A stretch of DNA of 61,944 bases from positions 1-61,944 of the IMG/VR virus record IMGVR_UViG_3300032268_000572; one strand, given 5' to 3'. Position 1 is the first letter of the stretch; each line of letters begins with the position of its first letter. Of this stretch, positions 15,944-59,523 are shown piece after piece. A program made the translations under genes and the position numbers. The DNA is from a virus (Duplodnaviria > Caudoviricetes). The notes beneath the pieces were generated by a model, which saw nothing but the letters and a program-made list of their open reading frames with translations, was not told where the DNA came from and ran no database searches.

Positions 15944-15972
15944 ATAACTCAACTAAATGAAAGAGGGATAAA

Positions 15973-16986: not shown

Positions 16987-16992
16987 CAAAGC

Positions 16993-17086: not shown

Positions 17087-17153
17087 CACCTAACAGACTT
17101 GACTTTTGTAATCAACTATGATAGAATAGTAATAAGAATAGAAAGGGCACAAA

Positions 17154-18971: not shown

Positions 18972-18974
18972 AAC

Positions 18975-19016
18975 TTCTGGCGGGGAGTCTTACTTCTATT
19001 CTTCTCCCCGTCAGAA
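18975..19016 (+). terminator. hairpin after the vWA gene
   Basis: ttctggcggggag / ctccccgtcagaa. Confidence 0.6.
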
Positions 19017-19095
19017 CCAAATCTTACGGCGTGCCGATTTGACAAATGTCTGGTGCGTATGGTATAATAGAACATAACGACGAAAGGACACAAAA

Positions 19096-19515: not shown

Positions 19516-19715
19516 TGGTAGACACAACGGGCAAGGTTCTGTGGGTAGCAGACGACGGAAGCTACGGATACGGCAAGCTGTTGACATTCGATACGGCAAG
19601 CTGGACTGACGAAGACTTTAGCAGACTAGATGAAGCATCGGATAGCGAAAGAGTAGATGTAGCAGTAGACATCGAGTATCAGAAGGAGACGGGTAATGTC
19701 GACTTGGGAAGTTAG
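19515..19715 (+). CDS. hypothetical acidic protein
   Basis: TAATG coupling, AAGGAG RBS. Confidence 0.7.
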   Translation: MVDTTGKVLWVADDGSYGYGKLLTFDTASWTDEDFSRLDEASDSERVDVAVDIEYQKETGNVDLGS

Positions 19716-19872
19716 GATATACGAAACGGTGTTCCATACAGCGTCAGTAGAAGCGAACAGTAGAGACGAAGCGTATGAAAAGGGTTATGAGATTATTACT
19801 AACGGCCCAAGTGACGGATACGATACAGAAGCAGAAGGATATACTGGCGACTGGGATGCTTGGGAAATCTAA
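19696..19872 (+). CDS. 58-aa protein with VEANSRDEA motif (DpnD/PcfM-like; not in ORF track)
   Basis: AAGGAG RBS; open frame MSTWEV...WEI. Confidence 0.65.
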   Translation: MSTWEVRIYETVFHTASVEANSRDEAYEKGYEIITNGPSDGYDTEAEGYTGDWDAWEI

Positions 19873-19876
19873 AAGC

Positions 19877-19970
19877 TTGTTCACACAAATAATGCGTCGC
19901 AAGACTCTAAAGTTGAAGTGAACAACAACCTAAGCAAGTTGTAAAAAGGCTTACTCAAACTTTGTAGAGC
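19877..19970 (+). ncRNA. candidate structured RNA containing pseudoknot copy 1
   Basis: ttgttcac/gtgaacaa stem; acaac/gttgt plus taagc/gctta pseudoknot. Confidence 0.5.
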
Positions 19971-35731: not shown

Positions 35732-37513
35732 ATGGGCATCTTCAAGAAAGACCCTGAGCCTAAAAAGCGCTCGCGTTCTTCAATCCGTGCGACAAGTGCA
35801 GGGGCTTCTATTTCTACGTCTAGGGCAATAGTTCCTTCTGACGTTTTTACTACAAATGGAACCCCAGCTCAGGCCCTTGCTTACAATGCCCCTAGAGCCC
35901 TAACCGCTGCTGCGGTGCAAATTAAACTTGGTGACCGTGACGAAGCAATACTTTTCAAAGAGAGACGTTCAGCTTCCTCATCCATGTGGCAAGCAGAGGC
36001 TTGGGAATACTACGACGCTATCGGCGAAGTTAAGTATGCCTTCAACCTTGTTGCCTCAGTTGTCTCCCGTATCAAGCTTTACCCAGCAATTGTATCTAAC
36101 CCTGCTGAAACTCCTACAGCTGTCAAGAACGTTGAAAGCGAAGAAGATGTACGTTTACTGAAAGCAGCTGAGCGTGCGCTAGCTCGCTTGGACTCAGCTT
36201 ATGGCGGTCAGACTGGACTGCTAAGAGATGCAGCTCTGAATCTTCAGGTAACTGGAGAGTGCTACCTAGCTCAGACTCCTGCACGACCAGGCCACGGAGT
36301 TCCAGAGTCATGGGACATTCGCTCGGTTGATGAAATCCAAACTGACAGTAAGGGAAACTACTTCATCATTCCACGCCGTGAACTGAAGAGCACAACTTCT
36401 GGTGGAACAGCTAAGAAGGGTGCTATCTCACTTCCTAAGAACTCTTTTGTTGGACGTATTTGGAAGTCACACCCGCGCTTTACAGAAGAAGCTGACTCGA
36501 GCATGCGAGGTATCCTAGACCTTTGCGCTGAGCTTCTACTTCTAAACAGAACCTTCCGTGCAACTGCACGTTCACGCTTGAACGCTGGTGCTCTTTACTT
36601 ACCAGACGGTCTCAGTGTTGCAGCTACTCCAGACCCTGACTACCCTTACGACGATGCAGATGGCATTTACAACGAGCCAACTCCAGAGGAGTTAGAAGAC
36701 GAGTTCGAGGACCAGCTCATCGACGCGATGACTACTCCTATTAAAGATGAAGACTCAGCGTCTGCCGTTGTTCCTCTCATTATTCGTGGACCTGCTGAGC
36801 TTGGTGACGCAATCAAGCAGTTTAAGTTTGAGCGCTCATTCGACCCTGCACTTGCAGAGCGTTCTGACAGAGTACTAGAGCGCATTATGCAGGGCCTAGA
36901 CGTCCCTAAGGACATTGTTACGGGCCTAGCAAATGTTAAGTACTCCAACGCACTTCAGATTGATGAGAGCTTGTACAAGGCGCACATCGAGCCTCTGATG
37001 CTAATTATTGCTGACTCGCTAACAGTTGTTTACTTGCGCCCATACCTACTTGCAAATGGATTCAGCGAAGCAGAAGTTGACCGTGTTGTTGTTTGGTACG
37101 ACCCTTCACAGGTTGCTACTCGTAACGACCGAGCTGCAGATGCTGACAGTGGATTTGACAAGATGGCAGTTTCATTTGAGAGCTGGCGTAAAGCTCACGG
37201 ATTCTCCGAGACCGACGCCCCAAGTCCTAATGAAGTTGCTCTAAGACTTCTAATTCAGCGTGGAGCTATTACTCCAGAACTGACTGAAGGAATGCTTAAG
37301 TCTGTTGCCCCAGAAGTTTTCCAAAAAATTCAGGAAATGAATCAGCAGGCTAGCCCAGCCCCTCTAAGCCCAGACATTATGCAGGCAGCTCAGGGGATTC
37401 CAGTAGCTGAAGAAGTTCCTGCAGAATTAGCAGAACCAACAACCGAAACACCTACTCCCACCCCTACCGAAGCAGAAGAACCTCCAGTTCCTCTAGCAGA
37501 GCCAACCACCTAA
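35732..37513 (+). CDS. portal protein
   Basis: WQAEAWEYYDAIGEVKYA, NLQVTGE, RIWKSHPR..ADS, RSRL..G; position after terL. Confidence 0.85.
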   Translation: MGIFKKDPEPKKRSRSSIRATSAGASISTSRAIVPSDVFTTNGTPAQALAYNAPRALTAAAVQIKLGDRDEAILFKERRSASSSMWQAEAWEYYDAIGEVKYAFNLVASVVSRIKLYPAIVSNPAETPTAVKNVESEEDVRLLKAAERALARLDSAYGGQTGLLRDAALNLQVTGECYLAQTPARPGHGVPESWDIRSVDEIQTDSKGNYFIIPRRELKSTTSGGTAKKGAISLPKNSFVGRIWKSHPRFTEEADSSMRGILDLCAELLLLNRTFRATARSRLNAGALYLPDGLSVAATPDPDYPYDDADGIYNEPTPEELEDEFEDQLIDAMTTPIKDEDSASAVVPLIIRGPAELGDAIKQFKFERSFDPALAERSDRVLERIMQGLDVPKDIVTGLANVKYSNALQIDESLYKAHIEPLMLIIADSLTVVYLRPYLLANGFSEAEVDRVVVWYDPSQVATRNDRAADADSGFDKMAVSFESWRKAHGFSETDAPSPNEVALRLLIQRGAITPELTEGMLKSVAPEVFQKIQEMNQQASPAPLSPDIMQAAQGIPVAEEVPAELAEPTTETPTPTPTEAEEPPVPLAEPTT

Positions 37514-37526
37514 GGATAAATAAATT

Positions 37527-38072
37527 ATGAACGATTACTACGAGATGGAAGATGCTTCTTCTAACCCTAAAGATGCACTAGCTTCTCAGCTTGCTAAGTT
37601 ACTTGCCGACACAGTCAACCTATCTTACCTAGCACAAGGTGCTCACTGGAACGTTAAAGGTTCTGACTTTTACCAAATGCATAAGTTTTTTGGCAAGATT
37701 TATGAAGATGTCTCGGGTTCAATAGACCCGCTCGGCGAGAGCATTCTTAAGATGGGCTACGACGCTCCTTACCTACTTTCTGACTTTTCAGCTTTCACTT
37801 CAATAATGCCAATGAGAGTTACCACTGGAGACAAGATGGAGTTTGCTCAAGCTCTATACATTGCTAACCAAGAAATGCTTAGTTGCTTGAACACAGGTTT
37901 CTCTCTAGCAGACGCCTCTAACCAGCAAGGCGTTGCTGACTTCCTAGCTGGAAGAATTGAAATGCATCAGAAGTGGGAGTGGCAACTACGTTCTACTCTT
38001 GGCGTAACTTCCGCCCCTCAGGTTGAGGTAGAGGGAATAGCTCCTTATGCCGAAAACCCGATTCAGTACTGA
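37527..38072 (+). CDS. dps: Dps / ferritin-like DNA protection protein
   Basis: AHWNVKGSDF..MHKFFG.IYED..D.LGE, H.KW.WQL. Confidence 0.9.
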   Translation: MNDYYEMEDASSNPKDALASQLAKLLADTVNLSYLAQGAHWNVKGSDFYQMHKFFGKIYEDVSGSIDPLGESILKMGYDAPYLLSDFSAFTSIMPMRVTTGDKMEFAQALYIANQEMLSCLNTGFSLADASNQQGVADFLAGRIEMHQKWEWQLRSTLGVTSAPQVEVEGIAPYAENPIQY

Positions 38073-41000
38073 GTTAATTGGCGAGTTTGCTTTAACAGCT
38101 GGGGCCAATGATGAGACCAGTGCTGAAAAGCGGGCTCGTGTTGCTACTCAGCTAAGAGACCGCTATGGCCGTTGGGTCGATATGGGTCGCGGTGTTAAAT
38201 TTAAAGTACGTTTACCAAACGGCAAATACCACAACGCACTGGGTCCTTTCACTGGAGATATGACTCCAGATGGTAGAGGCTACATAAAAGTAGAAAACGA
38301 CCCCTACCTACCTAATGGCAACTACCCAGTAGCTTCCAAAAACGCTCAGCAGTATATTGCCCTACTTACTGACGAAGACTTAGCTCAACAAGGCATCGAG
38401 CTAGGTAAAGACGTTGACGGCAATGTAGTTACCGCAAGAGAAGACTCTTCAATTCCTGACCTTGCTGACTTAATAGCAGAAGGAATAGTTTCTGGTTCTC
38501 CTAATAAAGAATTACGTTCTAGCATCACAGGCGAAGAAATCCAAGACATAAAAATTTCAAGCATTGCCAAAGCCTTAAAAGCCGAGGGACGCTTCCCAGT
38601 TCCAAGGCAGAGCTCTCTAGACACTTGGGGCAAAACCTCCGATGTTACAAAAGGCGCGAAGATAGACTACTCAAAAGTTTACGAAGGTATGAGTTCTGAA
38701 GACCCAGAGTTTGCAGAAAAATACCCAACCTTTAATAGTTTTTGGGACAGAGTTGTAGACCTTGCTGTAGACGAGAGGACTCAATCTCCAAACGACTTAA
38801 ACCAAATTAACCAAGAAATGAAGGAAATAAACAAAGGCTACGCTAAGCACGTTCTAGGACTAGACCCAGAAAATGGAACTTTTACTGTTTACAGAAACGC
38901 TATCAATAATGCATTTGAAGAAAAAGACGCTGCAGTTGGATATGTTTCAACTAGTAAAAACCTAGCTTTCGACTACAACGCTGGCACAAGGGCGGGCGAA
39001 CAAGCAAACGGACGCTACGAGATAACAGTAAAGCCAGACGAAGTAAATGGAATGATTGGCTATAGCCAAGTAGAAGACGAGTATGCGCTGACTATTGGTC
39101 AAGGAGTGACTTACCAAGAGGGAAGAGTTAAAAAAGTTGGAGAACTAGAAACTGTTAAAGTAGCTCCTTGGCATGAAGAGGCAGTCGGAAAATTAAAAAG
39201 AGGACAAGGAGCCACTCCTTTTAGGGGCCACTCTTTTGTTGGTCAGTTTGACTTCTTACCAATATCAAAAAACCCCATGCAGGTTGATAAATTACAAGAC
39301 TTCCTTGACGACAACAACATGACAATGGACGATTGGAAGAACAAATTTGACGAGCTCCACGGAGAAGGGGCCTACCAACGTTTTAAAGACTCAGGCCGTG
39401 AAAACCAAGTTTCCTTACAATCTCTAGAAAGGATGTTTGTTGACCTAGGTGACGGCACTTACGGACTAGACATAACCAAGCTTAGCCCTGCTGGCAACGA
39501 CAGCGCAGGTAGCGGTTCCTACGGCGATGCCCAAAACCCAAGTAGCTTTCTTAACGACTACGTTGACAACAAACTAAAGTTTCTCTCACTAATCCAAGAG
39601 ATAACTGGTGAGCCTTTTATGGTCCACAAGAACAACTCTCGAAATAAAGAAGTAGTAGAAAAGGTCAGCCCGCCCGAGCCCGAAGCTGAAAAAATTTCAA
39701 TTTCCGAACTCCCAAACGACACTACAGACTTTGATGAAGAAATTCTTAGTTCTGATTTTGACCAGATAAAGTTTGACATAGCTAAGGCTCCAGACGCAGA
39801 AGAATCTTACGCCCTTTACCAATACCAAGGACCTAAATATGAAGACATAAACAAGTTTGCTAGAGAAAATCCAAACTATAAAGAATCCGAAAATGACCCT
39901 TTGGCAACACGTTTTGCAGAAGAAACAAAGACAATTAACAAAATAGACAGTGCCTTTGAAAACATAAAAATTGCTGAAGACGTTACTGTTTATAGAGGGG
40001 CTGCAATCTCTAAAAGCAGATACGAATCTTTGCTTACAATAAAGCCCGGCGATAAGTTAGTTGACAGCGCTTACATGTCTACCTCTGTTAGCCCGAAAGT
40101 GGCAAAGGGGTTCGCGTACGGTGTTTTTGAGGATGATAAAACTAAGGCAGATGCGCTTGTTCTCAACAAGACTCCAGTTATTTACAAAATTAACGTAAAA
40201 GCTGGACAGCCTGCAATTAGAGTAAGAGACTACACAACCGCTGATGACTTAGGCGAGTCAGAAATTCTTTTATCTAGGGGGGCGTCAATTAAAGTTACAA
40301 ATGTTTCAAAAACTACCTTTGACCCCTTAACTGAAGATGGAGATAGCGTTGAAGTACTTGTTATTGAGGGTGAATACGAGCCAGTTGAAGAATACGTTCA
40401 GCCTCAGTCCTTAAAATTGATTGACAATCCAAAGTCTTCTGAACCAGCCAAAGCCGAGTCAGACACAATCATCGTCGACGGCACAAACACTATTACAGAC
40501 AGAAAAGGTAACACCATCAACTCAGGTGAAGAAGTGGAAATCTCATACGCTATTTATGAAGTTGGTAAGGGCTCTAGAAATGCTGAAAAACCACTAAAAG
40601 CTATTTTTACTGGCTATAAAGAGTCTGATTTTTCTGCTGGAAAAGGTATTGAAACAAAAAACCGTGCTATTTTATACGTTCCAGCGCAGGAAGGAACACT
40701 TGCTGGTTATTACGGAGTAAGTCCATATGTTTTAAATGCAGACCCTAATTCTGATGATTTTAGAGGCGTTGGTGGCACTTCTCCAGTAGATATTGACGGA
40801 TTTAGCGAAAAAAATGCTCTTCCTAGCCCAAAACAAATGACCCCCCTTTCGGAACAAGAGGCAGAATCTGTAATTGACTACACCAACCACAAAGGAAGTT
40901 ACGTAGAAATCAATTCATCCCTAAGAAATGAATCTGTGTCCCCAGAAACTCAAGAAAAAATTGACGTTTTAGATAAAATTATTGGATATAACCAAATTTT

Positions 41001-41355
41001 AGAGGACCAAGACTACTATAGAGGCATTCCTATCCCCCTAGGCCTCACTTTAAAAGAATTTTTAACTAGTTTAGAATCTGGCGAGATAGAAGAGCTCGAG
41101 GAAACTGGCTTTTCTTCAACATCTACTGACGAAAAAATGGCTTCAATCTTTGCTAACAAGTATTTTGGCGGTGGCGTAGTGCTACGTATTAGGGCTAAAG
41201 CTGGGCAAAATGCTTATTATGTCCCTAAGTTCTTGGCTGGGGTTATAGCTAACGAAAACGAAGTAATTCTGCCTAGAGGGCTAAAGTATAAAATAATTAA
41301 TTACGAATTTGACCCCCAAGAAGACAAAGTTTTACTAAACGTAGAAATAGGATAG
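38047..41355 (+). CDS. protein with three ADP-ribosyltransferase domains (two clearly VIP2-like)
   Basis: three R-STS-ExE triads: VYRN/STS/EDE (~38860-39130), VYRG/MSTS/ESE (~39790-40380), YYRG/SSTS/ENE (~40850-41350). Confidence 0.85.
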   Translation: MPKTRFSTELIGEFALTAGANDETSAEKRARVATQLRDRYGRWVDMGRGVKFKVRLPNGKYHNALGPFTGDMTPDGRGYIKVENDPYLPNGNYPVASKNAQQYIALLTDEDLAQQGIELGKDVDGNVVTAREDSSIPDLADLIAEGIVSGSPNKELRSSITGEEIQDIKISSIAKALKAEGRFPVPRQSSLDTWGKTSDVTKGAKIDYSKVYEGMSSEDPEFAEKYPTFNSFWDRVVDLAVDERTQSPNDLNQINQEMKEINKGYAKHVLGLDPENGTFTVYRNAINNAFEEKDAAVGYVSTSKNLAFDYNAGTRAGEQANGRYEITVKPDEVNGMIGYSQVEDEYALTIGQGVTYQEGRVKKVGELETVKVAPWHEEAVGKLKRGQGATPFRGHSFVGQFDFLPISKNPMQVDKLQDFLDDNNMTMDDWKNKFDELHGEGAYQRFKDSGRENQVSLQSLERMFVDLGDGTYGLDITKLSPAGNDSAGSGSYGDAQNPSSFLNDYVDNKLKFLSLIQEITGEPFMVHKNNSRNKEVVEKVSPPEPEAEKISISELPNDTTDFDEEILSSDFDQIKFDIAKAPDAEESYALYQYQGPKYEDINKFARENPNYKESENDPLATRFAEETKTINKIDSAFENIKIAEDVTVYRGAAISKSRYESLLTIKPGDKLVDSAYMSTSVSPKVAKGFAYGVFEDDKTKADALVLNKTPVIYKINVKAGQPAIRVRDYTTADDLGESEILLSRGASIKVTNVSKTTFDPLTEDGDSVEVLVIEGEYEPVEEYVQPQSLKLIDNPKSSEPAKAESDTIIVDGTNTITDRKGNTINSGEEVEISYAIYEVGKGSRNAEKPLKAIFTGYKESDFSAGKGIETKNRAILYVPAQEGTLAGYYGVSPYVLNADPNSDDFRGVGGTSPVDIDGFSEKNALPSPKQMTPLSEQEAESVIDYTNHKGSYVEINSSLRNESVSPETQEKIDVLDKIIGYNQILEDQDYYRGIPIPLGLTLKEFLTSLESGEIEELEETGFSSTSTDEKMASIFANKYFGGGVVLRIRAKAGQNAYYVPKFLAGVIANENEVILPRGLKYKIINYEFDPQEDKVLLNVEIG

Positions 41356-41364
41356 ACTAAAATC

Positions 41365-41589
41365 ATGGAAAAAGATAAAACCCCTAAAAAACCATTCCCA
41401 GCTCAGAAAAGCTCCCTAGGTGAGAGAATGAACGACACCTCTGCCATGATGATTAAGAAAGATGGCAAGTGGGTTTGGCTTGATACAGGGGAAGAAGTAG
41501 AAAATCCTCCCGAGGATGGCACTCCTACTTTAGAACCAGACAAAAAAGAAAAAGAGTACGGCGAATTTTATAAGCCTTCAGACAAATAA
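41365..41589 (+). CDS. small hypothetical protein after the ART gene
   Basis: 74-aa ORF 9 bp after the stop. Confidence 0.6.
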   Translation: MEKDKTPKKPFPAQKSSLGERMNDTSAMMIKKDGKWVWLDTGEEVENPPEDGTPTLEPDKKEKEYGEFYKPSDK

Positions 41590-41665
41590 ACAGCTAAATA
41601 ATAAGATAGAATCTTTCTATTGCTTCTTTTAGCAATTAGTGTTACGTGCATAATGAGGAAGGCCA

Positions 41666-44600
41666 TTGGGCGTGAAATCTGAAATTCATGCTCTGATTGC
41701 GTCCTTGGTCTTCAACCAAGAGACTCCATCGGAGCCACAGGATTTCTCAGTATCCAAAATTACTGAGTCGGTGTCGCTACTGGTCGAAAACGGCAATGAC
41801 GGAGTTGCCCCAGAGCGTAGAGCCACTTTAAAATCTGCCCTTATTGTTGCAGAGCGTTCCTTAGTTGCCAGTGCAAATCGTAAGCTTGAGACTAGAGCCT
41901 TCAACCTAGTCAGAGACGTAACTAATTTCATCACCCTATCTAAAGATGGCAGAGTAGGTGAGTTTGCTCCGACTAACACAGACTTACTTTCTATTGGACA
42001 CCCTCTTTCTACAGCCCCGCACTCTATGGGGACTAAAGAGCTAAGAACTGCTCGCTCTAGGTGGATTGCAGCTGACCCAAGAATTTCTGTAGAGTATCGC
42101 GCTCTAGTTTCCTCAGCTTATGGTTCAGAACCTAACTCTGTAGAGCAGAACTTTGCAATTGCAAGATTGCAAGCTCTACCTAAAGGCTCGATACCAGCTG
42201 AACTTATTATTTCTTCCACCATAGAAGCTTTAACTGCTGGAATTGGTGATGGAAACTCTTCTGCTGCACGTAGAGCCCGCGTAAAGCTACAGTGGCGTGA
42301 CAGGTATGGACGCTGGGTGGAAATGGGCCGTGGCACCATGTTCAAGCTACGTATGCGTGACGGTTCTATTAAAGACGTTAGAGGAAAGTTTGTTGGTGGA
42401 ACTTCCAGCCCAGCTTTTGGACGTGTACTTGTTCGTAATAGCGGAGACGCTAACATTCCAGATGCTGTATACCTAGTCAACTCTAGAAATGGAGAAGTTT
42501 TTGACTTCGAGCTTGCTGAAGGAATTCTAGAAAAATCTGGAATTGATGCTTCTAAGGTCGAAAAGCCTGCAACTATCACAGAGCAACTTGATAAAGACAT
42601 TCAAAACATTGCAACCATTAGAACACTCTCTCCTAACTCACTGGATGACGAGCTTGCTGGTGGCTCTACTGACGAAGAAAAAGCTACTGCTAAAGAGTTA
42701 CAAGAAAAGTCACCTATCGCTAAGTTGCCAGCAGGCGCCGAAGCTGAGTCCGTTCCTCAAGAAGCCCTAGTTAACTTTGACGAAAAGTCTTTTGCTGAAA
42801 AAGTAGCTTTCAACACCGACGTTGACATTCCACTTGTTGACCAAAGATTTAAAGAATTTTTAAGCAAAGATAAGAACCTAAAAAACACCCTTGACCCTAA
42901 AAAGTTTGGCAAGTACCTAAGCTCAGACTCGCCAGTTTCAGACGCCCTGTCTGACTTTGATGCTGGCACTATAAACAAACAAGACTTGGTCAACATGTTC
43001 GAAGAGGGCTCATACGAAACTAGCTTGGGCGGTAAGAATAAAGAGCTATCTAACGTTCTACAGGGCTTGGGAGACTACTTTAAGAAAGACTATGACCCTC
43101 AAGACTACTCAGACGCAGATAAGTCAGAGCCTATTGCTTTGTTGCCAGAAACAGTCCCCACAGCTCCAGTAGCTGAAGGCGGAATACTAGAGGGCTTTGA
43201 CTACGACAAGGCAAAAGCAGATTCAAGCTATGTCGACTCTTTCTTGGATGGATTCGACGCTGGTGTCTACGCTGCTCCTGAAAAGGACATCTCTGTTTTA
43301 ACAGACTCTCAGAAAGAGGCTTACGAAGCTGGACTGTCATTAGGTGACAAGAAAAACACTGAAGCTTTAGTACTCGCTCAAGATGAATTCCCTAGGTACG
43401 GTCAAGAAGGTTTTGAGGCGGACTCGAAGCAAGCACTTTCTGAAGCTATCTCTGAAATTTCAAAGCCTTTCTATGACGAGCTTGAAAAACAGCAGGCCGA
43501 ATCTATGGCTAATGAAGCTCAAGCCACAGAAGAAGACAAAGTTGTAGGAGAGAGATTCACTGAGTGGCAGGTTCCAGCTGGAGCTTACCCACTTCAAAAT
43601 CAAGAACCTTACGAGGCGTCTGGGGCTCTTTCTGACATCTATGGTGCAGATGCAACTGATGACCCTAAAGTACTTGCTAGCTCTTTTGACTCTGAAATTT
43701 TGGAAGAAGCTTTAACTAAATCTATATCTGGTGATGGAGATTCAGAAGTCGATTTTGCAGATGCAGGACCAGTACCAATTCCAGCTGAAGCTCTCTACGA
43801 TGCTCTACGCGAGCAGGGTGTAAACGCTGACTCAGTTGTTGCAAAAGCATATGATGCTATTTCTGGTAAGAGCGAAAATCAAATCAACCTAAAGTCTTTT
43901 AGAGAAAAAAAGCCTGCAGGACAAATTGCCAAGCTAGACGCAAAGGTCATCGAGAAGTCTTCTGCTACCGAGCTAAACAAGTTTTTAGTTAAAGACGAAT
44001 TAGCAGGTAAAGCAGTAGACCTAATTGAAGCAGGCAAAACTGGAGATGGTTTTGGAGATGCTGACCTTCAAATTCTTGCCGACTCAATTAACTCAATTGA
44101 AATACCAAAGACTCAGCCAATAGATTTCTTAGAGCGTCCAGTAGGAAAGCTTCTAGCAGAATACTTACCTTGGGCGTTTAGTGATGACGAAAGCAAGAAG
44201 CAGGCTTTCAGGGGTCTTCTTGGTTTGGTTACTATTTCTGACGGCCACGAAGGTCTTGTTACCGACAAAGGCGGAGTTCTAGACAAAATCTTCAAGAAGT
44301 CTGAGTTCTACGACGAATCTGCACAGGACCCAACAGCAAAGCTTAGAGAAGCAATCTACCCAGATGGTTACACTTACACTGACTTCCTAAAAAGTAAGTC
44401 CAGAGTTGCTATTGGAGAAGAAGATGGCAATAGCCCAAACTCTTTTGCTGGAGCTACTTACAAACTAGCTGCAAAGCTTTCTAAAGAACAGACCACAGAC
44501 TCTCCAGGTGGATTTGCTAGAGGAATTATCAACCCTGGCCAAGAGGCTATAGACGCTTACACTACTGTTGGCAACGTCGTAAACATGGACTTAAGACCAT

Positions 44601-52042: not shown

Positions 52043-52650
52043 AAAATACAGTGGTATTCGGAAAATACGGAGTATTAGTTAAGTTTGGTGAAGACGGCTT
52101 TGCTAAGTACATTAACGAGGCATATCTAGACTCTTCCAATCTTGACTACCTAACTGTAACTGGAGATTTTCCTCAAGCTCAGGCCTACCCAGTGGACGCG
52201 GAAGACCTATCAGTAGACGAAAACACAGGTACAATTAAATTTAAAGCTTTTGACGCAGATTACATTATTCGTGAGTTGCGTGAAGAGGATGGATATTGGC
52301 TTTCTAAGTACAAGACTCCTCTACCAGTAGAAGCTTTAGAGCAAATTATTCGTCGAGAAGGTGTGGTTAACTACATGGCTTATATGGACAACCCAGTGAT
52401 ACCAGAAGAAGAAAAAACTTACGCTTTGGCTTACCCAGATAGCGACTTTATTATTGCTCTTGTCTACGACAACGAGCTCGGTCGCTACAGCAGAATAGAT
52501 AATGATTGGGTTTTAGTTAGCCCCGTCGAGACTGCCTATAACGACACCATAGCTATAGAAATAGACCCAGATAAAACAGATTCTTTTGTAGAACTATATG
52601 ATGAAAAACAGCTAACTATAGAAGATGCTGAAAAGCATGGCTTAAATTAA
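52039..52650 (+). CDS. acidic hypothetical protein coupled to the giant gene
   Basis: abuts/overlaps the stop; 203 aa, acidic. Confidence 0.75.
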   Translation: MKNTVVFGKYGVLVKFGEDGFAKYINEAYLDSSNLDYLTVTGDFPQAQAYPVDAEDLSVDENTGTIKFKAFDADYIIRELREEDGYWLSKYKTPLPVEALEQIIRREGVVNYMAYMDNPVIPEEEKTYALAYPDSDFIIALVYDNELGRYSRIDNDWVLVSPVETAYNDTIAIEIDPDKTDSFVELYDEKQLTIEDAEKHGLN

Positions 52651-52662
52651 GAAAATTTAAAA

Positions 52663-55600
52663 ATGTCTAAAATTGTAGGTCGTTCTGGTTCTAAGCTACT
52701 AGTTAGAGGCACTAGTTTTGCTGTTGTCTATGACACCGAAGCTAGCTTAATTATTGATAGCGGAAAAGCCGACGATTTAGCTGCTTCTCGAATTTGGAAA
52801 AATACCAACGAACTTATTTCCCCCGAAGCTAACTCTTTAGTGGCTAGTGCGCTAGAAGGATTAGAAGCAGGCACCATCACTGCAGCTGGACGCAGGCTTT
52901 TTACAATTCCATCTGGCGTAAAAGCTGAAGCTAAAAAAGCACTCCAATGGCGTAGAGAAGAAAAGCGTGGAGGCACTCCTGTTGGGCTAAACACTGCTCG
53001 CACTCTAGCTAGAGGCGGACAAATAGGTCTAGAAAAAATTCGCCACATTGCAAAATACTTTCCTCGTCACGAAGTTGACAAAAAAGGTAAGGGCTGGTCT
53101 GTAGGAGAAGATAACTTCCCATCTAACGGACGTATCGCTTGGGCACTTTGGGGTGGAGATGCTGGTTGGCGTTGGGCCCGTGCAATCGTAGAGCGTGAAG
53201 ACAAGAAAGCCATGAAGGCTGATGCTTACGTTAATAGACTAGGGGCAGATGTCTCTGCTTTTAAAAAAGCTTTTGAAAACGGAGATGGCTTAGGGCCAGA
53301 ATTTATTGCCAGAGTTCGTATGGACGGTACTGGAATTGACAGAATTTACAAGGTTGACCTAGATGGCGAAGTTTACTTCTGGGACGATGGCAACTGGGAC
53401 GACCTAGGCTATGTAGACGGGGACATTTGGACTTATGACAAGTCAATAGATGACCCTTATGACACCGTAGCTAAGCAACACATAATGATTGACCCAGAGT
53501 CAGCGGTTGTTATTTGCGCCAGACTACAGACTCTACCTTTTGACAATGTTTCTGTATTTGACATTGATGCTGAAGAAGCCAAGATTGCTCAAGACTACTT
53601 GATTAATGAAATAGATGAAATTGACTTTATTGATAGGGTAATAACCGCTGCAGGAGAGACTGGAATCAAAGTTGCCGATGCTGATGGAGTCTACAGCCCA
53701 GAAGAGCGCTCTCAAAAGGCTACTCAGCAGGTAAGAAATGCTGCAGGAAGGTTCTCTAAGCAAGGTTCTAGAGTTACCGTTAATGGCAATCGCCAAGGAA
53801 CTATAACTTCAATTAATCCAGCTAACAAAAGCGTAGTTGTTAAATATGACGATGGTGCTACCGAAACTGTTCCAGCTTCTTCCACTAGGGCAGTACAGGA
53901 AAATGTTCCAGTAAGCTCTAACGTTTCTGATGTAAACATTTCAGACGTTACCCCCTTAGATGTTTCTGGAATTCTTGGAGAGCCTAGGACACCAATTGAC
54001 CGTCCTCAAGCTCAGATGCCTGGAACTTTACCAGCCCTCACTAGAGATGACTTGACTAGTTTAATGTCTAACTGGCCTGCTTGGGTCCAATCGCAAAGAA
54101 ATGCTTTCTCACCTCTACCAGTTTCAACTCAGGTCAGTAAAGACCCAAAAAATTTAACAAAAGAGTACCAAGAAGACCTTTACAAAAAAACTGGAATTAA
54201 GCACTCTTTTGACCCCTATGACCACCCCCTATTGAAAAAGTTTTTCTCTAAGAGAGATAGTGAGGGCCGTAGCCCTAACGCTATCTACGCAGCAGCCACT
54301 AAAGACGAGCGTCCAAAAGAACTCACCCCAGCAACTTCTGATATTCAGCCTCTTTATATGGCTATTGTTTCTCCCGAGGACCTAAGAGCAGTTATGGATT
54401 TAGTTGCTCTTATTCCAGCCAGCTCTAAATCTAACGAACCCATGACTTATGTTCGTAAGGAAGGAAAATGGGTACGAGAGCCTAACATTCTTGCTGACTT
54501 AAACTCTGCCACTCCACCACCAGTTGTACCTCTAGACATAGATACTTTAGATTCTGTACTAAAGCAAGCTGACGGTTTAGTTGCTTCTGCATACACTAAA
54601 GACTTAGTGCTAACAGTGCTTTGGGGTCCTGATAAAGAAAACATTGCAGACGCTATTCTGGCCGCTGGTGGGCTTGACCGTAACAGGGGTAACGCAGAAG
54701 AACTTAGAAAATATTGGACACGTGGCAAGGGTGGTGCAAAAATTCGTTGGGGCACCCCTGGCGACTGGACCCGTTGCGTTAGAAACTTACGTAAGTATAT
54801 TGGACCTCGTTCCAAAGGCTATTGCGCTCTCCGCCACAAGGAGATGAATGGGGTATGGCCTGGCGACAGAAAGAACCGTCAGAAATTTAGCTCAAACGTT
54901 AAGCTAGGAACCTTTAGTATTCAATTTTTGAACAATTCTGAAACAGTTTTGTCAGTGTCTACTCTCACAGCTTCTGGAGACTTCTCTGAAGAATTTAGCT
55001 ACGAAGGCTCTAAATTTATAATCCCTCTAGTGATTCCAGAAGAGCTAGAGTCTGGGGACGGTAGAAAGTTTAAGAAGGACTCCATCTCCTTTAGAGAGCT
55101 ACCATTACCGTTAATGTGGCAGATAAAGACTGACGATGGCCACGCTGGGTCCGTAGTTGTTGGAAGAATTGACCACATGGAGCGAACAGAGCAAGGTATC
55201 GGCAATGCTTATGGAGTATTTGATACAGGTCCTTACGCAAAAGAAGTAGAGCGTTTAGTTAAATACAAGTTTATTCGTGGAGTATCAGCTGACATGGACC
55301 AGTTTGAGGCCGAGGAACAAGAAGACACCAATGACAAGGAAAATGCTAAAAAGTCTAAGGACTCTATTGGCAAAACCAAAATTAGTATAAATAAAGCTAG
55401 GGTTATGGGTGTTACAATAGTACCAAAGCCAGCTTTCCAAGAATGCCAAATTTTCCTTGACGCACAGGAAGATGGCGATTACCAGGAGGATACTTTGATT
55501 CCAACAGATGGAATTTACGTTGATGAAATGGAGCCACAGGACGCCTCAAGTCTTGTAGCTTGTGGCATAGTCGCAAGCTCTATCTTAGTTACACCGCCAG

Positions 55601-57282
55601 CCGATTGGTATAACAACCCCAAGCTGAGTAAGGCCACGCCACTAACTGTCGACGATGATGGTCGCGTTTATGGTCACATAGCAGCTTGGCATGTGGACCA
55701 CATTGGACTTCCATACGGCACTAAGCCTCCCCGCTCTCGCAGTAATTATGCATACTTCCACACTGGCGTTGTTCGTACTGAAGACGGTTCAGATGTTCCA
55801 GTAGGTCAGCTCACCTTGGCTGGTGGACATGCTTCTCTAGAGGCTTCTGCTGCTGAGGCAGTTAAGCACTACGACGACACAGCTTCCGCAGTTGCTGACG
55901 TCCACGCTGGAGAAGACCAGTTTGGAATTTGGGTAGCTGGTTCTCTACGTCCAGGTACTGGACCTGAGCAGATTCGCACTCTACGTGCTTCCGCTCCTTC
56001 AGGAGACTGGAGACCAATTCGTGGCTCTCTAGAACTAGTTGCCGTATGTCAGGTAAACGTTCCAGGTTTCCCAATTGCTCGTGCTCGTGTTGCTTCTGGT
56101 GCAGTAGTAGCTCTTGTAGCAGCTGGTGCTAGCGTTCTTGCAAAACTAAAAGCAGACCCAGTTAGCGAACTTTCCAGCAGAGTACAGAAGCTTGAGAGCA
56201 TGAATCTTCTTGAAGAAAGAGGAGCAGAGCTAGCAGCCATCAAAGCTAAGTTTAATGAAGTAAAAGCAGAGTTTGCTTATGATGACTTTGCATTTATTTC
56301 TAGCCAAACTAGGAAAAAACTAGCAAAAGCTGGAATGGCTTTGCCTGACGGTTCTTTCCCAATTAGAAACTCTTCAGACTTGAAAAATGCTATTCAATCT
56401 TATGGCAGAGCAAGCAAAGAAAAGCGTGCTTCAGTTCGTAGACACATTATGAAGCGTGCACGTGCTCTAAAGAAGTATGACTTGGTTCCTCAAGATTGGA
56501 AGTCAGCATCTGCTGATGGCATAACTGCCTCCGTAGAGGCCATGAGGTCAAAAATAGAATCAGTTTCTGCGAGTGGCGGATACGCTGCTCCAGAGGAGGT
56601 TCTTGACCCAAAAAAAGCAGTAGCGCCAGCTAAGGTAGCTGGCGCAGACTCCAAGAAGTTTGAGTCGCTAGCTAATGAAGAGGAAATTGACCCTATAACT
56701 GGCGAACCAATCCTACCTAGCGATGAGCTTTTAGAAGATGGAAGAGTTGGCACTGATGGCAGAAAAGATGAAGGTATCTACACAGCCAAAAGCCAGCCTA
56801 GAGACCAGCAGGGCAAATTCCGTAAAGTTCTAGCTCGCCTAAAACAGGACTTGGGAACAGCTGGCCTTCAAAATATTGTAGAAGAAGTCAAGTACGTAGA
56901 AGGCCTAAACAAGCTAGGAAACTACCAAGAATCTTCTGATGCGGCTGGAAAGCTTATAGACATTGTAGACAGGCTAGACGCTGGAGCTCTAAATAAAATT
57001 TCGCTCGAGAACGTCCGTTCTTCAGCACGTGAACTTGGCAAGGTAATTGCCAACCTACCTCTAGGGTTTGACAATCAAGCTCGAAAAGTTAGGTATTCAG
57101 ATTTGCCCCCTGCTCTTAGGGACCTCATGGATGACATGATTACTAGGGTTGAGGACAAAATTGGTAAGGAAGATGCTGACATAGCAACTGAAGCCTTGAG
57201 GGCATTTAAGGGTGGTTCTGACGTATTCAGTCAGGGCGAAATCTCTGCTCAAATGGGCAAGCTACTCAGACTTCTTACCTAA
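52663..57282 (+). CDS. capsid maturation protease multidomain fusion
   Basis: ESGDGR, LPLMWQ, GHAGSVVVGRID, GVSAD, GVTIVPKPAF (~55000-55450); second module GRVYGH..SGDWR..VNVPGFP; position before the capsid gene. Confidence 0.8.
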   Translation: MSKIVGRSGSKLLVRGTSFAVVYDTEASLIIDSGKADDLAASRIWKNTNELISPEANSLVASALEGLEAGTITAAGRRLFTIPSGVKAEAKKALQWRREEKRGGTPVGLNTARTLARGGQIGLEKIRHIAKYFPRHEVDKKGKGWSVGEDNFPSNGRIAWALWGGDAGWRWARAIVEREDKKAMKADAYVNRLGADVSAFKKAFENGDGLGPEFIARVRMDGTGIDRIYKVDLDGEVYFWDDGNWDDLGYVDGDIWTYDKSIDDPYDTVAKQHIMIDPESAVVICARLQTLPFDNVSVFDIDAEEAKIAQDYLINEIDEIDFIDRVITAAGETGIKVADADGVYSPEERSQKATQQVRNAAGRFSKQGSRVTVNGNRQGTITSINPANKSVVVKYDDGATETVPASSTRAVQENVPVSSNVSDVNISDVTPLDVSGILGEPRTPIDRPQAQMPGTLPALTRDDLTSLMSNWPAWVQSQRNAFSPLPVSTQVSKDPKNLTKEYQEDLYKKTGIKHSFDPYDHPLLKKFFSKRDSEGRSPNAIYAAATKDERPKELTPATSDIQPLYMAIVSPEDLRAVMDLVALIPASSKSNEPMTYVRKEGKWVREPNILADLNSATPPPVVPLDIDTLDSVLKQADGLVASAYTKDLVLTVLWGPDKENIADAILAAGGLDRNRGNAEELRKYWTRGKGGAKIRWGTPGDWTRCVRNLRKYIGPRSKGYCALRHKEMNGVWPGDRKNRQKFSSNVKLGTFSIQFLNNSETVLSVSTLTASGDFSEEFSYEGSKFIIPLVIPEELESGDGRKFKKDSISFRELPLPLMWQIKTDDGHAGSVVVGRIDHMERTEQGIGNAYGVFDTGPYAKEVERLVKYKFIRGVSADMDQFEAEEQEDTNDKENAKKSKDSIGKTKISINKARVMGVTIVPKPAFQECQIFLDAQEDGDYQEDTLIPTDGIYVDEMEPQDASSLVACGIVASSILVTPPADWYNNPKLSKATPLTVDDDGRVYGHIAAWHVDHIGLPYGTKPPRSRSNYAYFHTGVVRTEDGSDVPVGQLTLAGGHASLEASAAEAVKHYDDTASAVADVHAGEDQFGIWVAGSLRPGTGPEQIRTLRASAPSGDWRPIRGSLELVAVCQVNVPGFPIARARVASGAVVALVAAGASVLAKLKADPVSELSSRVQKLESMNLLEERGAELAAIKAKFNEVKAEFAYDDFAFISSQTRKKLAKAGMALPDGSFPIRNSSDLKNAIQSYGRASKEKRASVRRHIMKRARALKKYDLVPQDWKSASADGITASVEAMRSKIESVSASGGYAAPEEVLDPKKAVAPAKVAGADSKKFESLANEEEIDPITGEPILPSDELLEDGRVGTDGRKDEGIYTAKSQPRDQQGKFRKVLARLKQDLGTAGLQNIVEEVKYVEGLNKLGNYQESSDAAGKLIDIVDRLDAGALNKISLENVRSSARELGKVIANLPLGFDNQARKVRYSDLPPALRDLMDDMITRVEDKIGKEDADIATEALRAFKGGSDVFSQGEISAQMGKLLRLLT

Positions 57283-57420
57283 ATAATAAACAACAAAAAA
57301 CAATGTATAATTGTTCTTAGGTGGAGTGCCTCCGCGCCTAGTTGCGTGTAGTCCCTTTGCTTTAGACCGAACACAGCAAGTGAATGAAGTCCATTCACAC
57401 AACTGTCCTTAGGAGGTACA

Positions 57421-59523
57421 GTGGACCAGATTAAGTCGCAAATTGACGTACTGTCTGAGCTTAGTGACGACCAAGTCGCACAGCTACAGGCCGATATCGT
57501 AAGCGAATTTGAATCAGTTGAGTCCCAAGAACCTACCGCAGAAACAGTTGACGCTATGACGTCGCTTGCCGACATGTTGGACTCAGTGAAGACTGAAGTT
57601 CAGCAGCGCGAGGCCGCTGCCGAGGAGCTTGCTGCGCGAGCTGCTGAGGCAACCATGCGTGTTAAAGGCGAGGACGAGGAAATGGGAGAAGACGAGATGA
57701 TTCCAGCTGAAGAAGTAGAAACTCCAGAAGCAGAAGAAGAAGTCGCACCCACCGAAGAAGTCAAAATGGCTGACGAGGTTCCTGAAGATGAGGAAGATAA
57801 AAAAGACATGAAGTCTTATTCTTCCGATTCATCCACAGCGTCTACTGAAGCGGTAGAAGGTTCTGAACTTTCAACTGAAGAAGAAACTGAAGCAGAAGTA
57901 GTTACTGAAGATGCACCAGTTGCAGATGAAGTAGTTGCAGAAGCTACCATTGAAGGCTCAATCGAGCTTTCAACCGAAGAGGAACAGCCAGCTGTAGAAG
58001 CTGAGGCTGAGAAGACCGAAGAAGAGCCAGTTACTGAAGAAGCAGTTGTTGCTTCTGGTGACGACTCTCCAGAGGCACCAGCCGAAGAATCTGTAGTAGA
58101 TGCTGAAACCCCTCAAGAAGCAGATGTAGTAGAAGCAGTCGTTGAGACTGAGCCTGCTGCAGAAGCATCAACCCAAGAAGAAAACCAAAACGCTCTAGAA
58201 GAGCAGGAAGAGCAGGCACCCGTGACCGCCTCAGCAGACGAGAGCTTCCAAGCTCCAGCTGACCGCCAGCCTGTAATCCAGGTTTTGGAACCAGCTAAGG
58301 TAGCAATTACCGCTGGTGCCGACATCCCTGGTTACACCGCTGGAACAGAAATCAAGAACATGTACGAAGTAGCTTCGGCTATGGAAAAGCGCATCCACTC
58401 GCTTCGTCGTGTAAACGGAGGAGATGGAGAGCAGCACATTGTTGCATCCGTAACCACCCAGTTCCCAGAGGAGCGCACTCTATCTACCGACGCTGAGTCA
58501 AACGCAGCCAAGATTGATGCTGTTGTAGGCCAAGAGGCACTTGTTGCCGCTGGTGGACACGCAACACCATTCGAAGTTAAGTACGACATCTTCTCCGTCG
58601 GCTCTACCACTGACCGCCCAGTTCGCGATGCATTGCCTCGCTTCCAGGCTGACCGTGGCGGAATCCGCTTCGTAACCCCGCCAAGCTTTGCTGCTGGTTC
58701 CTACGCTAACGCTGTTGGCATCTGGACTGCTGCAAACGACTCAGCGGAGACACCAAGCCCAGCCTCTAAGCTAAGCCTAACTGTAACTGCAGCTCAGGAG
58801 AACACCGTTTCTACTGACGCAGTTACTCTACAGCTACAGTTTGGTAACCTCATGACTCGCGCTTACCCAGAGTTGATTGCTCGTCACAACGAGCTAGCTC
58901 TAGTACAGCACGCACGTGAGGCAGAGCAGAACTTGTTGGCTAACATTGCTACTGGTTCTACTGCTGTTACAACCACTTCCGTAATTGGTTTTGGTCGTGA
59001 CTTCCTAGTACAGATTCGTCGTGCAGCTACTGCTTACCGTAGCCGTCACCGTATTGACCCTCAGACTCGTCTGAAGGCCATTATCCCAGCTTGGGTATAC
59101 GATGCTGTAGCAGCTGACCTAGCTCTAGCTATGCCAGGCGATGGAACACTATCAGTATCTCGTTCAGAGATTGATGCCTACCTAGCCAACGTAAATGTTG
59201 ACTTAGTAGCTTCTCTAGACGCAACTGTATTCGGTTCTCAGAGTGCTGCTGCACTTCTTGAGTTCCCAGACAGCTTCGTTTGGTATCTCTTCGCCGAAGG
59301 AACATTCTTGTTCCTAGATGGTGGAACTCTTGACCTAGGTATCATCCGTGACTCGTCACTGGTTGGAACCAACGATTACAAGATGTTCATCGAGACCTTC
59401 GAGAACGTTGCAAAGGTTGGAATTGAGTCTCTAGCTATCACCTCGACCATCTCGGTCAACGGTGTTGCTGCAGCTCTACGCGACACCACTGGTGGCGCAA
59501 CAGCAGCCGCTGTAGAGTACTAA
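57421..59523 (+). CDS. major capsid protein (hexamer type) with acidic scaffold-like N-terminus
   Basis: GGAGG RBS; ALVAAGG, RPVRDALP.FQADRGG, FLFLDGGTLDLGIIRDS.L..NDY..F.ETFE. Confidence 0.85.
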   Translation: MDQIKSQIDVLSELSDDQVAQLQADIVSEFESVESQEPTAETVDAMTSLADMLDSVKTEVQQREAAAEELAARAAEATMRVKGEDEEMGEDEMIPAEEVETPEAEEEVAPTEEVKMADEVPEDEEDKKDMKSYSSDSSTASTEAVEGSELSTEEETEAEVVTEDAPVADEVVAEATIEGSIELSTEEEQPAVEAEAEKTEEEPVTEEAVVASGDDSPEAPAEESVVDAETPQEADVVEAVVETEPAAEASTQEENQNALEEQEEQAPVTASADESFQAPADRQPVIQVLEPAKVAITAGADIPGYTAGTEIKNMYEVASAMEKRIHSLRRVNGGDGEQHIVASVTTQFPEERTLSTDAESNAAKIDAVVGQEALVAAGGHATPFEVKYDIFSVGSTTDRPVRDALPRFQADRGGIRFVTPPSFAAGSYANAVGIWTAANDSAETPSPASKLSLTVTAAQENTVSTDAVTLQLQFGNLMTRAYPELIARHNELALVQHAREAEQNLLANIATGSTAVTTTSVIGFGRDFLVQIRRAATAYRSRHRIDPQTRLKAIIPAWVYDAVAADLALAMPGDGTLSVSRSEIDAYLANVNVDLVASLDATVFGSQSAAALLEFPDSFVWYLFAEGTFLFLDGGTLDLGIIRDSSLVGTNDYKMFIETFENVAKVGIESLAITSTISVNGVAAALRDTTGGATAAAVEY

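Follow-up and report, generated by a model that had tools for sequence, protein, structure and literature searches.

Putative prohead-protease sites and a shared N-terminal module in the head and multi-enzyme proteins of an uncultured actinophage

We analysed a 61,944-base stretch of viral DNA (IMG/VR record IMGVR_UViG_3300032268_000572, completeness rating 36%; hereafter the window, with gene order given for the plus strand), part of which is the head-assembly block of a large actinophage known from metagenome alone. Two sequence elements recur in this block. The first, [ILV][TVL]A[AGS] (motif 1), occurs in the portal, in a protein with two ADP-ribosyltransferase (ART) domains, in a giant protein, in a protease-scaffold polyprotein and in the major capsid protein. 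The second, Q-x-R-[DN]-x-x-G-[RK]-[WF] (motif 2, or RD motif), occurs in the ART protein, the giant protein and the polyprotein, and three of its four copies lie at the heart of a domain of ~100 amino acids (aa), which we call the module. On the observed statistics, conservation, homology and synteny, the best reading, which we hold with moderate confidence, is that motif 1 marks prohead-protease processing sites and that the module acts as a capsid-retention module for injected enzymes. An earlier note on this DNA had taken the two elements for a protease site and a portable capsid-targeting tag: protease-site behaviour of motif 1 is supported, by its specificity for head proteins and for residue order, whereas motif 2 belongs to a domain too large to be called a short tag.

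The nearest relatives have genomes of 129-194 kb. By capsid protein the closest named one is DSL-LC01, a metagenome-assembled Actinomycetia phage (72.5% identity over the aligned part), followed by the Microbacterium phages Pumpernickel, Big4 and Cece (53-57%), Arthrobacter phage Atuin (51%) and Gordonia phages such as GMA2 (~48%); a related capsid protein is encoded in at least 299 IMG/VR stretches.

Every motif-1 instance named in the earlier note is present, with starts at 35900 in the portal, 38092 in the ART protein, 42230 in the giant protein, 52876, 53641, 54655, 54964, 56113 and 56521 in the polyprotein, and 58045, 58222, 58306, 58438 and 58540 in the capsid protein. Further instances lie in the portal (36047), the polyprotein (52837, 54577 and 55567), the capsid protein (58783 and 59203) and the giant protein (six more). 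Scored with the note's own pattern against 1000 composition-preserving shuffles, the polyprotein holds 9 instances where 1.64 are expected and the capsid protein 7 where 1.32 are expected, numbers that none of the 1000 shuffles of either protein reached. The giant protein has 7 against 2.78 expected (P = 0.019), while the counts in the portal (2 vs 0.80, P = 0.19) and the ART protein (1 vs 0.68, P = 0.5) are not significant by themselves. The enrichment is thus located in the polyprotein and the capsid protein, and the portal and ART sites are supported because they are conserved across relatives, not through their counts. Motif 1 is absent from the terminase and rare or absent in tail genes, and 37 hand-picked non-head open reading frames (ORFs, not validated genes; 7,617 aa) contained 6 instances where 6.6 were expected.

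The same comparison was made with a stricter pattern, [ILVM][TV]A[AGS], on the portal, protease/scaffold and capsid proteins encoded in the window and in three distant relatives that have been cultured, with 400 shuffles each. Observed counts were 17 against a shuffled 2.64 in the window, 12 against 2.05 in GMA2, 15 against 1.76 in Atuin and 13 against 2.60 in Pumpernickel, and in each of the four phages 0/400 shuffles matched the observed count. The other genes of the same stretches gave 2 vs 4.4, 3 vs 2.2, 2 vs 5.3 and 10 vs 9.0, respectively (the window set here being 34 plus-strand ORFs, with the 7 minus-strand ORFs of the 37-ORF set excluded). The four phages are related (43-58% capsid identity), so these tests are not independent of one another. 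The contrast that the earlier note had predicted is present: motif 1 is enriched in head proteins and at or below expectation in other genes.

Motif 1 is also specific to the order of its residues. When all 24 orderings of the same four residue classes were counted in the same proteins, the original order came out on top with 57 matches; the runners-up, at 35 and 30, are A-L-T-A-A shifted in register, and the median was ~6. Alignment of seven sites (one in the portal, two in the capsid protein, three in the polyprotein and one in the module family), which stand in four unrelated sequence settings, yielded one common consensus, [P/A]-[LIVM]-[T/V]-A↓[A/G/S]-[G/A] from P4 to P2'. At each of the seven sites 88-100% of the sequences have Ala at P1, and P1' is mostly Ala, also Gly or Ser. 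Motif 1 is real and well above chance, and its head-protein and order specificity support the view that it behaves as a protease-site linear motif.

In the portal and the capsid protein, motif 1 is placed where variable sequence switches to conserved sequence. All 25 of the occupied aligned portals have motif 1 at the column of the putative cut site, with P5 Arg, P2 Thr and P1 Ala each at 100% (n = 24), and conservation goes from 0.26 for aa 1-50, which are variable and gap-rich, to 0.69-0.75 after y..PR.[LIM]TA↓AA. The capsid protein has an acidic low-complexity segment (aa 90-262; 37% acidic and 3% basic residues) with a conservation of 0.35, against 0.75 from aa 263; conservation picks up exactly at PVTA↓[AS] and runs via a 28-aa peptide to AITA↓G. 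Among 76 aligned capsid proteins, motif 1 is kept in 65, 75, 70 and 73 at the sites starting at 58222, 58306, 58438 and 58540, and the first, third and fourth of these are recognisable in Pumpernickel, Atuin and, with a relaxed pattern, GMA2, whose first site reads AMAAS. The instances at aa 340 (58438) and aa 374 (58540) lie within the conserved body of the protein and may stay uncut. Sequence searches of the PDB with the capsid protein, the polyprotein and a capsid profile returned only acidic low-complexity matches, and the mature N-terminus could not be read from a solved capsid.

The 28-aa peptide between the two capsid cut sites (aa 272-299, 58234-58317; ..feaPADRqPv.qv..ApVAITAG) is conserved across the family and into Atuin. 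Such conservation is odd for a discarded piece, and the peptide may be a docking site; that the acidic insert is the electrostatic partner of the module's basic stretch is speculation. Two proteins have an N-terminus at the predicted cut site: the portal ORF of locus L014 (111-1691), which opens M-TAAAARIP, and a module protein (P0154) which opens M-ADGNSS. These could be real leaderless forms or artefacts of gene calling.

Relatives in which these genes are split repeat the pattern: each separate piece opens with a leader of ~15-22 aa and motif 1 (Atuin gp75; GMA2 Orf11, Orf12 and Orf13). The Atuin protease gene gp75 begins 20 aa ahead of the equivalent of polyprotein aa 768, and from residue 22 onward its product matches aa 765-1200 of the window polyprotein, with MVAS at residue 21 in the place of LTAS at aa 768. 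The three GMA2 proteins have ALTAA, SLVAG and TIVAG at residues 21, 22 and 16, respectively. DSL-LC01 has its protease-scaffold region (14960-19879) divided into three ORFs (603, 851 and 183 aa) with 4-nt overlaps or gaps, and the 183-aa ORF shows VIAA at residues 7-10 when a looser pattern is used.

For motif 2, the expression R[DN]..G[RK][WFY] has exactly 4 matches in all six frames of the window, all of them in the ART, giant and polyprotein genes, and the four positions first reported for it (38149, 42289 within 1 nt, 53728 and 56794) are each the Gln of the motif. The sequence stretch that the earlier note had seen in both the ART and giant proteins is also confirmed: ART aa 1-164 match giant aa 171-338 with 37% identity (BLASTP E = 1e-20). 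The module consists of a basic stretch closing in Q-x-R-D-R-[YF]-G-R-W, followed by a small conserved domain, and has no match in Pfam (E <= 10), PHROGs or NCBIfam.

A profile of six N-terminal modules, searched against 1.84 billion proteins, matched at least 363 representative clusters at E <= 1e-3 (153 at <= 1e-10). What stands of the original idea about motif 2 is that it is part of a recurrent homologous element fused to many different sets of enzymes. The family proteins are nearly all 1,000-6,000 aa long, and their module starts either at residues 1-30 or at ~180-195. By tblastn against 50,697 phage records, the module was found in 7 Microbacterium-phage records, and the C-terminus of the polyprotein in the same 7 and in DSL-LC01. 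No module was found in 185,579 species-representative bacterial and archaeal genomes, a search that needed exact words of the Q[LW]RDR[YF]GRW type and is weak evidence that prophages lack it. The portal gene lies 19-2,598 nt upstream of the module gene in 29 of the 39 IMG/VR loci that have enough upstream sequence; several of the 10 loci without an upstream portal match follow the Atuin gp74 type, where the module stands at the head of a protein of ~835 aa on the scaffold side. DSL-LC01 encodes one more protein that begins with the module, 466 aa long and placed after the portal (L001, 1325-2725).

Behind this constant head the cargo is highly variable. Among close module homologues, 12 of 13 carry PF03496 ART domains, in varying number and with GNAT or other inserts. 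A Pfam census of 18 proteins chosen from the 150 module proteins listed found UvrD helicase (4), PI3/PI4-kinase (4), AAA_19 (3), Zeta toxin (2), ART (2, plus 1 PF01129), GNAT (1) and WYL (1); polypeptides of the family combine several unrelated enzyme domains, and the set differs between orthologues. In the window, both ART domains have the catalytic signature R / S-T-S / E-x-E (aa 649-651/678-680/737-739 and 991-993/1024-1026/1070-1072). The NUDIX domain of the giant protein matches PF00293 (E = 1e-5, or 7.6e-7 when the segment is scanned), with further matches to phrog_1198 and phrog_2563, and a Pfam scan of the giant-protein segments found nothing besides NUDIX. Identity between the modules of the ART and giant proteins is only 34%, and the giant module ranks 89th of 134 among the neighbours of the ART module; they are therefore old paralogues which have both long been kept, and a recent duplication of the giant's module to give that of the ART protein is ruled out.

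What precedes the module comes in different forms. A strict RD motif lies within the first 700 aa of 133 of 157 stored family proteins, of which 100 have a short leader, 3 an intermediate one and 30 one of ~190 aa. In 98 of the 133, strict motif 1 precedes the RD motif by 18-32 aa, as the relaxed pattern does in 97 short-leader proteins; in the family alignment P1 is Ala in 98% of 132 sequences, the exceptions being mostly the relaxed forms LVAV, LVAF, LQAA and LLAD. Short leaders have a median of 17 aa (range 7-27) and a net charge of -1.4, and the segment after the cut site is basic (+2.7 over ~17 aa). The N-terminus of the ART protein, MPKTRFST..LTA, is kept in homologues with this start, and LTA is invariant in the module alignment (A1). 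The long leader of the giant protein is a conserved domain of its own: 31 long-leader proteins align, with the blocks eRrV, DLLp.GHPlS, W.aaDp and R.LVA.A, and no family match was found. Most members have a second motif-like LVA[AS]A within this leader. Three giant proteins (Atuin gp71, MAWKISKAKRQALVKLQLRDKKGRW..., and those of loci L035 and L042) start directly at the basic stretch of the module, 6-46 nt after the portal stop codon, with neither leader nor motif 1. Their natural N-terminus is close to the one which cleavage would produce in the others. Since leader and motif 1 are present or absent together, motif 1 is not part of the module fold. The two elements are also separable in the other direction: GMA2 has motif 1 and no motif 2 anywhere, and motif 1 is therefore independent. 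A single two-motif code, as originally proposed, does not survive this observation.

The polyprotein combines both elements with the candidate protease. A prohead protease is encoded within the head block, as judged from the matches to phrog_18402 and phrog_3244, a PF04586 score near the cut-off and conserved His and Ser blocks. Two protease-annotated domains stand in tandem (55015-56133); GMA2 Orf12 corresponds to the second alone, and this second domain (aa 976-1157) has no Pfam match. Motif 1 is conserved in homologues in 16 of 31 sequences at aa 72, 25 of 34 at aa 327, 22 of 34 at aa 665 and 34 of 34 at aa 1151. The aa 72 site precedes a conserved N-domain, the aa 665 site precedes a phrog_6439 domain, the invariant aa 1151 site directly follows the second protease-like domain, and the aa 327 motif is an island between variable linkers (conservation 0.68 vs 0.38 and 0.45 in the flanks). 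The order of domains in these head proteins shifts from one relative to another.

Behind the aa 327 site lies a diverged internal copy of the module. BLASTP alone missed this copy (E ~6) and profiles were required: hhalign of a 135-sequence module profile against polyprotein aa 318-425 gave Prob 95.5% and E = 1.4e-8 over 69 columns, and the module HMM matches the same region of polyprotein homologues in 14 loci (9e-5 to 6e-7). The fourth copy is confined to the motif; it aligns with the internal copy (hhalign Prob 91%, E = 9e-7, 27 columns) and weakly with the N-terminal module (Prob 20%). Strict motif 2 is kept in 23 of 34 polyprotein homologues at the internal copy and in 31 of 34 at the C-terminal one.

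These observations suggest the following scheme. Motif 1 would be recognised by the prohead protease that the phage itself encodes as part of the polyprotein. During prohead maturation this enzyme would trim ~59 aa off the N-terminus of the portal, remove the scaffold-like N-terminal part (~270-299 aa) of the capsid protein, split the polyprotein into its domains, and remove an 18-aa leader from the double-ART protein and the 191-aa leader domain from the giant protein. After the putative cut site both enzymes begin with the ~100-aa module, the constant head of a hypervariable multi-enzyme family. Being common to the enzymes and to the scaffold/protease protein, the module could bring about their co-assembly into the prohead interior; the enzymes would be retained after processing and would exit with the DNA, like T4 Alt, P1 DarB and MuF-fused effectors. 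A bolder version, which we offer tentatively and consider possible rather than probable, is that, throughout a large actinophage lineage common in the environment, a propeptide ending in L-[T/V]-A↓A-G is cut by an HK97-type protease with Ala at P1, that the RD module docks cargo on the RD modules of the polyprotein by homotypic contact so that any enzyme array placed behind it is loaded and injected, and that freshwater ARTs with leader and module are Alt-like effectors directed at the bacterial host.

Several points count against the scheme. Cutting by the prohead protease, the presence of the ART and giant proteins in the virion, retention through the module and injection are all steps that we infer. 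Either of the two protease-like domains is a candidate for the cutting enzyme: the S78 domain reaches 20.7 bits with PF04586 (E = 4.8e-4 scanned alone), just under the curated cut-off of 21, and a scan of three GMA2 ORFs (Orf11-13) gave no S78 match, though GMA2 is motif-enriched. Several conserved motif-1 instances (capsid 58438 and 58540; polyprotein 55567 and 56113) are also embedded in sequence that is itself strongly conserved and probably folded, where conservation of the motif is inseparable from that of the fold. The cargo of 109 family proteins (239,697 aa) contains motif 1 92 times, against 59-109 for decoy patterns and 122.5 expected from composition. This is decoy level, so motif 1 does not mark domain boundaries inside the cargo as had been supposed; being neither enriched nor depleted there, it shows no sign of selection against cutting, which proteins lying next to an active protease might be expected to show. 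If motif 1 is a cut site, context, such as an exposed linker, must matter. GMA2, with motif 1 and no module, implies that the module is not required for head assembly as such. The literature search found no virion proteome of a close relative. The sole experimental hint is distant: the study of GMA2 included virion mass spectrometry (PMC4524720), and the record labels its post-portal Orf10, which has no RD module, a 'putative structural protein'.

The C-terminus of GMA2 Orf10 (L126, 4234-6885) weakly resembles Acb1 / 2H phosphoesterase (matches with E = 8e-4 and 1.3e-3, short of the cut-offs), which would fit an injected anti-defence enzyme in a module-less relative.

We considered a T4-style arrangement, which we judge unlikely, in which motif 1 is again the protease site but the address is the leader that is removed, and the RD module works in the mature protein, for instance as a binder of the DNA end, of the portal channel or of the ejection path, which would let the enzyme exit together with the DNA. 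The short leaders are of the size of T4 and P1 targeting peptides, the basic segment after the cut would suit nucleic-acid binding, and GMA2 head proteins have leader and motif 1 with no module. There are also precedents: the conserved ~190-aa leader recalls the long propeptides reported for SPN3US (PMC10052503), and in phage P1 the 30 residues at the N-terminus of DarB are described as sufficient for targeting, loading a reporter (PMC9024508). However, conservation of the leaders is low (0.20), three types without relation to one another are seen (short, long and none), and the leaderless giants keep the module, so that if they are packaged the leader cannot be a universal address. Nor does a role in DNA binding obviously account for the copies in the protease-scaffold protein.

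A second alternative, which we likewise doubt, dispenses with cleavage: motif 1 would be a structural or assembly element (a strand, a hinge, or a site recognised by a chaperone or scaffold), and the module an inherited N-terminal domain of the giant family with an unrelated enzymatic or oligomerisation role, spread to the ART protein and the polyprotein by domain shuffling. Cleavage is, after all, a deduction; some conserved domains do contain invariant instances (capsid aa 340 and 374; polyprotein aa 1151), motif 1 is not depleted in cargo, and the fluid domain order of the head proteins would be in keeping with shuffling. What this alternative handles poorly is the recurrence of the same order-specific consensus in non-homologous contexts and its confinement to proteins known as prohead-protease substrates (portal, scaffold/protease and capsid), with none in the terminase and few or none in tail genes. 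It also leaves the joint presence or absence of leader and motif 1, and the recurrence of motif 1 ~20 aa past the start codons of split genes, without a ready account. Chance in proteins rich in Ala, Val, Thr and Gly (the capsid protein is 15% Ala) might produce a loose four-residue pattern, and the portal and ART counts alone would allow it, but the 400-1000 composition-preserving shuffles, the ordering control (57 vs a median of ~6) and the four motif-2 matches in six frames, all in three genes, refute this explanation, which we regard as extremely improbable.

The reading of motif 1 as processing site and the module as retention element has parallels in several phages. T4 Alt is processed by the protease gp21, and the ART protein of the window matches the Alt-like phrog_802. 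As in the accounts of T4, one protease motif would be found on many head proteins, short N-terminal peptides would end in the cut site, and an ART (Alt) is packaged and injected (PMC5512222, PMC9024508). The differences are that gp21 is described as cutting after I/L-x-E (PMC12991175), whereas here the predicted cut has Ala at P1; that the protease of the window is HK97/S78-like and fused in a 1,539-aa polyprotein; and that the ~100-aa module would be retained, whereas in T4 the targeting peptide itself is removed.

The lengths of the putative propeptides resemble those of the phiKZ gp175/SPN3US gp245 system. By mass spectrometry, ejection proteins of SPN3US are reported to have N-terminal propeptides that are either short (20-24 aa) or long (111-254 aa), the long ones being cut at several places; the portal is reported to be processed as well, and the protease to cleave itself near its C-terminus (PMC10052503); the predicted sites here would give leaders of 18 and 191 aa and cuts at portal aa 59 and polyprotein aa 1151. 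P1 is Glu there and Ala here, the phage lineage and protease family are unrelated, and the sites were mapped by mass spectrometry there and are predicted here. With Ala at P1, the seven sites fit neither L/I-x-E nor S/A/G-x-E and fall outside the class of proteases with Glu at P1.

DarB of P1 is described as a 250-kDa multi-enzyme protein, encoded beside the portal and prohead protease, of which ~40 copies are packaged and which is thought to enter the cell (PMC9024508). Its signal is given as 10-30 residues and that account reports no consensus among Dar proteins, whereas here a ~100-aa domain is common to two cargo proteins and the scaffold/protease protein. There is an architectural likeness to the MuF-fused toxins and polyvalent proteins of Iyer et al. 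2017, in which, as described, a constant head-associated N-terminal domain is followed by variable conflict enzymes (ART, helicase, kinase, GNAT, NUDIX and Zeta), the gene lies beside that of the portal, and packaging and injection are predicted (PMC5512222). The window shows the corresponding placement, in the order portal, Dps, ART and giant. Unlike MuF, the module follows a putative propeptide site and has a duplicate within the protease-scaffold protein, and no PF04233 (MuF) match was found in the module or in P0003, P0004 or P0005.

The HK97 protease gp4 is reportedly (work of Duda et al. in 2013) carried into the prohead by its own short portable C-terminal targeting signal. Compared by description only, this recalls the copy at 56794, which consists of the motif alone and lies in the scaffold-like C-terminal part of the polyprotein; the difference is that here the same motif also heads separate cargo proteins. 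By analogy, then, the system would work like those of T4, phiKZ/SPN3US and P1 and like the MuF-fused polyvalent proteins, while lying outside the Glu-P1 class and the MuF family. A search of titles and abstracts, which did not extend to supplements and is weak evidence for novelty, found no description of motif 1 or the module.

Coordinates of the head block and of the features discussed are given in Table 1.

Table 1 Genes, putative cut sites and domains of the head block of the window; arrows mark putative cut positions.
Feature	Residues	Nucleotides	Strand	Remarks
Terminase large subunit		32303-33721	+	PF03237/PF17289; three small ORFs next, then portal
Portal	593 aa	35732-37513	+	phrog_776, E = 4e-101
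Portal, putative cut site PRALTA↓AA	57-60	35900-35911	+	after variable ~56-aa N-terminal piece
Dps/ferritin-like protein		37527-38072	+	PF00210, E = 3e-16
Double-ART protein (P0003)	1,102 aa	38047-41355	+	PF03496, E = 2.8e-37; Alt-like phrog_802, E = 8.6e-18
ART leader and putative cut site ALTA↓G	1-15 and 16-19	38047-38103	+	cut site at 38092-38103
ART N-terminal module	~20-115	38104-38391	+	basic stretch to QLRDRYGRW, then MGRGVKFKVR..., G-rich conserved region
Two ART domains	577-757 and ~900-1090	39775-41316	+	PF03496, E = 2.8e-37, 2 stretches
Giant protein (P0004)	3,458 aa	41666-52042	+	NUDIX the single recognisable domain; 203-aa ORF follows
Giant leader domain and putative cut site ALTA↓G	1-188 and 189-192	41666-42241	+	cut site at 42230-42241
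Giant N-terminal module	~193-290	42242-42535	+	QWRDRYGRW at aa 209-217; E = 7e-57 vs A1 profile
Giant cargo part		42536-52042	+	NUDIX aa 1866-1976 (47261-47593); phrog_2563 region aa 1495-1649; no named family elsewhere
Protease-scaffold polyprotein (P0005, protease fusion)	1,539 aa	52663-57282	+	phrog_18402, phrog_3244
Polyprotein, putative cut sites	72, 327, 665, 768, 1151	52876, 53641, 54655, 54964, 56113	+	
Diverged internal module copy	~342-411	53686-53895	+	QQVRNAAGRF at aa 355-364, then small beta-rich domain
HK97/S78-like prohead serine protease domain	~785-935	55015-55467	+	conserved GH and GVSAD; phrog_3244, E = 3e-5
Second protease-annotated domain	976-1157	55588-56133	+	phrog_18402 'head maturation protease', E = 3.4e-61; ends in invariant ALVA↓AGA
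Fourth copy, motif only, QPRDQQGKF		56794-56820	+	C-terminal scaffold-like part; conserved R.VLARLK.DLG follows
Major capsid protein	700 aa	57421-59523	+	phrog_777, E = 5e-81
Capsid N-terminus	1-89, then 90-262		+	conserved coiled-coil-like, then acidic low-complexity (57688-58206)
Capsid, putative cut sites PVTA↓S and AITA↓G	268-271 and 296-299	58222 and 58306	+	

The Dps-like gene stands between the portal and ART genes and shares its last 26 nt with the beginning of the latter. Its product has neither motif 1 nor motif 2 and could be another packaged protein. Dps homologues immediately follow the portal in other loci, for example L003 (5213-5752), L025 (8787-9293) and L034 (7137-7592), and in L021 a Dps-like part lies within a 680-aa ORF; overall, a homologue is present in 10 of 124 loci. 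The gap between the ART and giant genes (41356-41665, 310 nt) lacks a long ORF and a promoter-like site; its minus strand has one weak hairpin resembling a terminator. Genes in the non-structural part of the window include an endolysin-like gene with amidase_2 and PG_binding_1 domains (1026-1874, minus strand), a T5orf172/MUG113 gene (5384-6337, minus strand) and an AAA_5 (MoxR-like) ATPase gene (15973-16986, plus strand).

If the reading of cleavage sites and retention module holds, a specificity for Ala at P1 would be predicted which was not found in the retrieved literature on prohead proteases of the lineage, and head-protein processing would become predictable across hundreds of uncultured actinophages. 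The module, being searchable, would flag virion-packaged, injected multi-enzyme proteins, so that enzymes of early host takeover and anti-defence (ART, UvrD helicase, PI3/4-kinase-like, Zeta, GNAT and NUDIX) could be catalogued in phages of freshwater and soil Actinobacteria. PF03496 proteins of freshwater phages have been interpreted as 'Trojan horse' toxins aimed at eukaryotic grazers (bioRxiv 10.1101/670067). Those of this lineage lie among the head genes, with a leader, a putative cut site and the RD module ahead of them, and an Alt-like injected effector would be a better fit for that position. Cultured relatives exist (Microbacterium phages Pumpernickel, Big4 and Cece, and Arthrobacter phage Atuin), which makes these steps testable.

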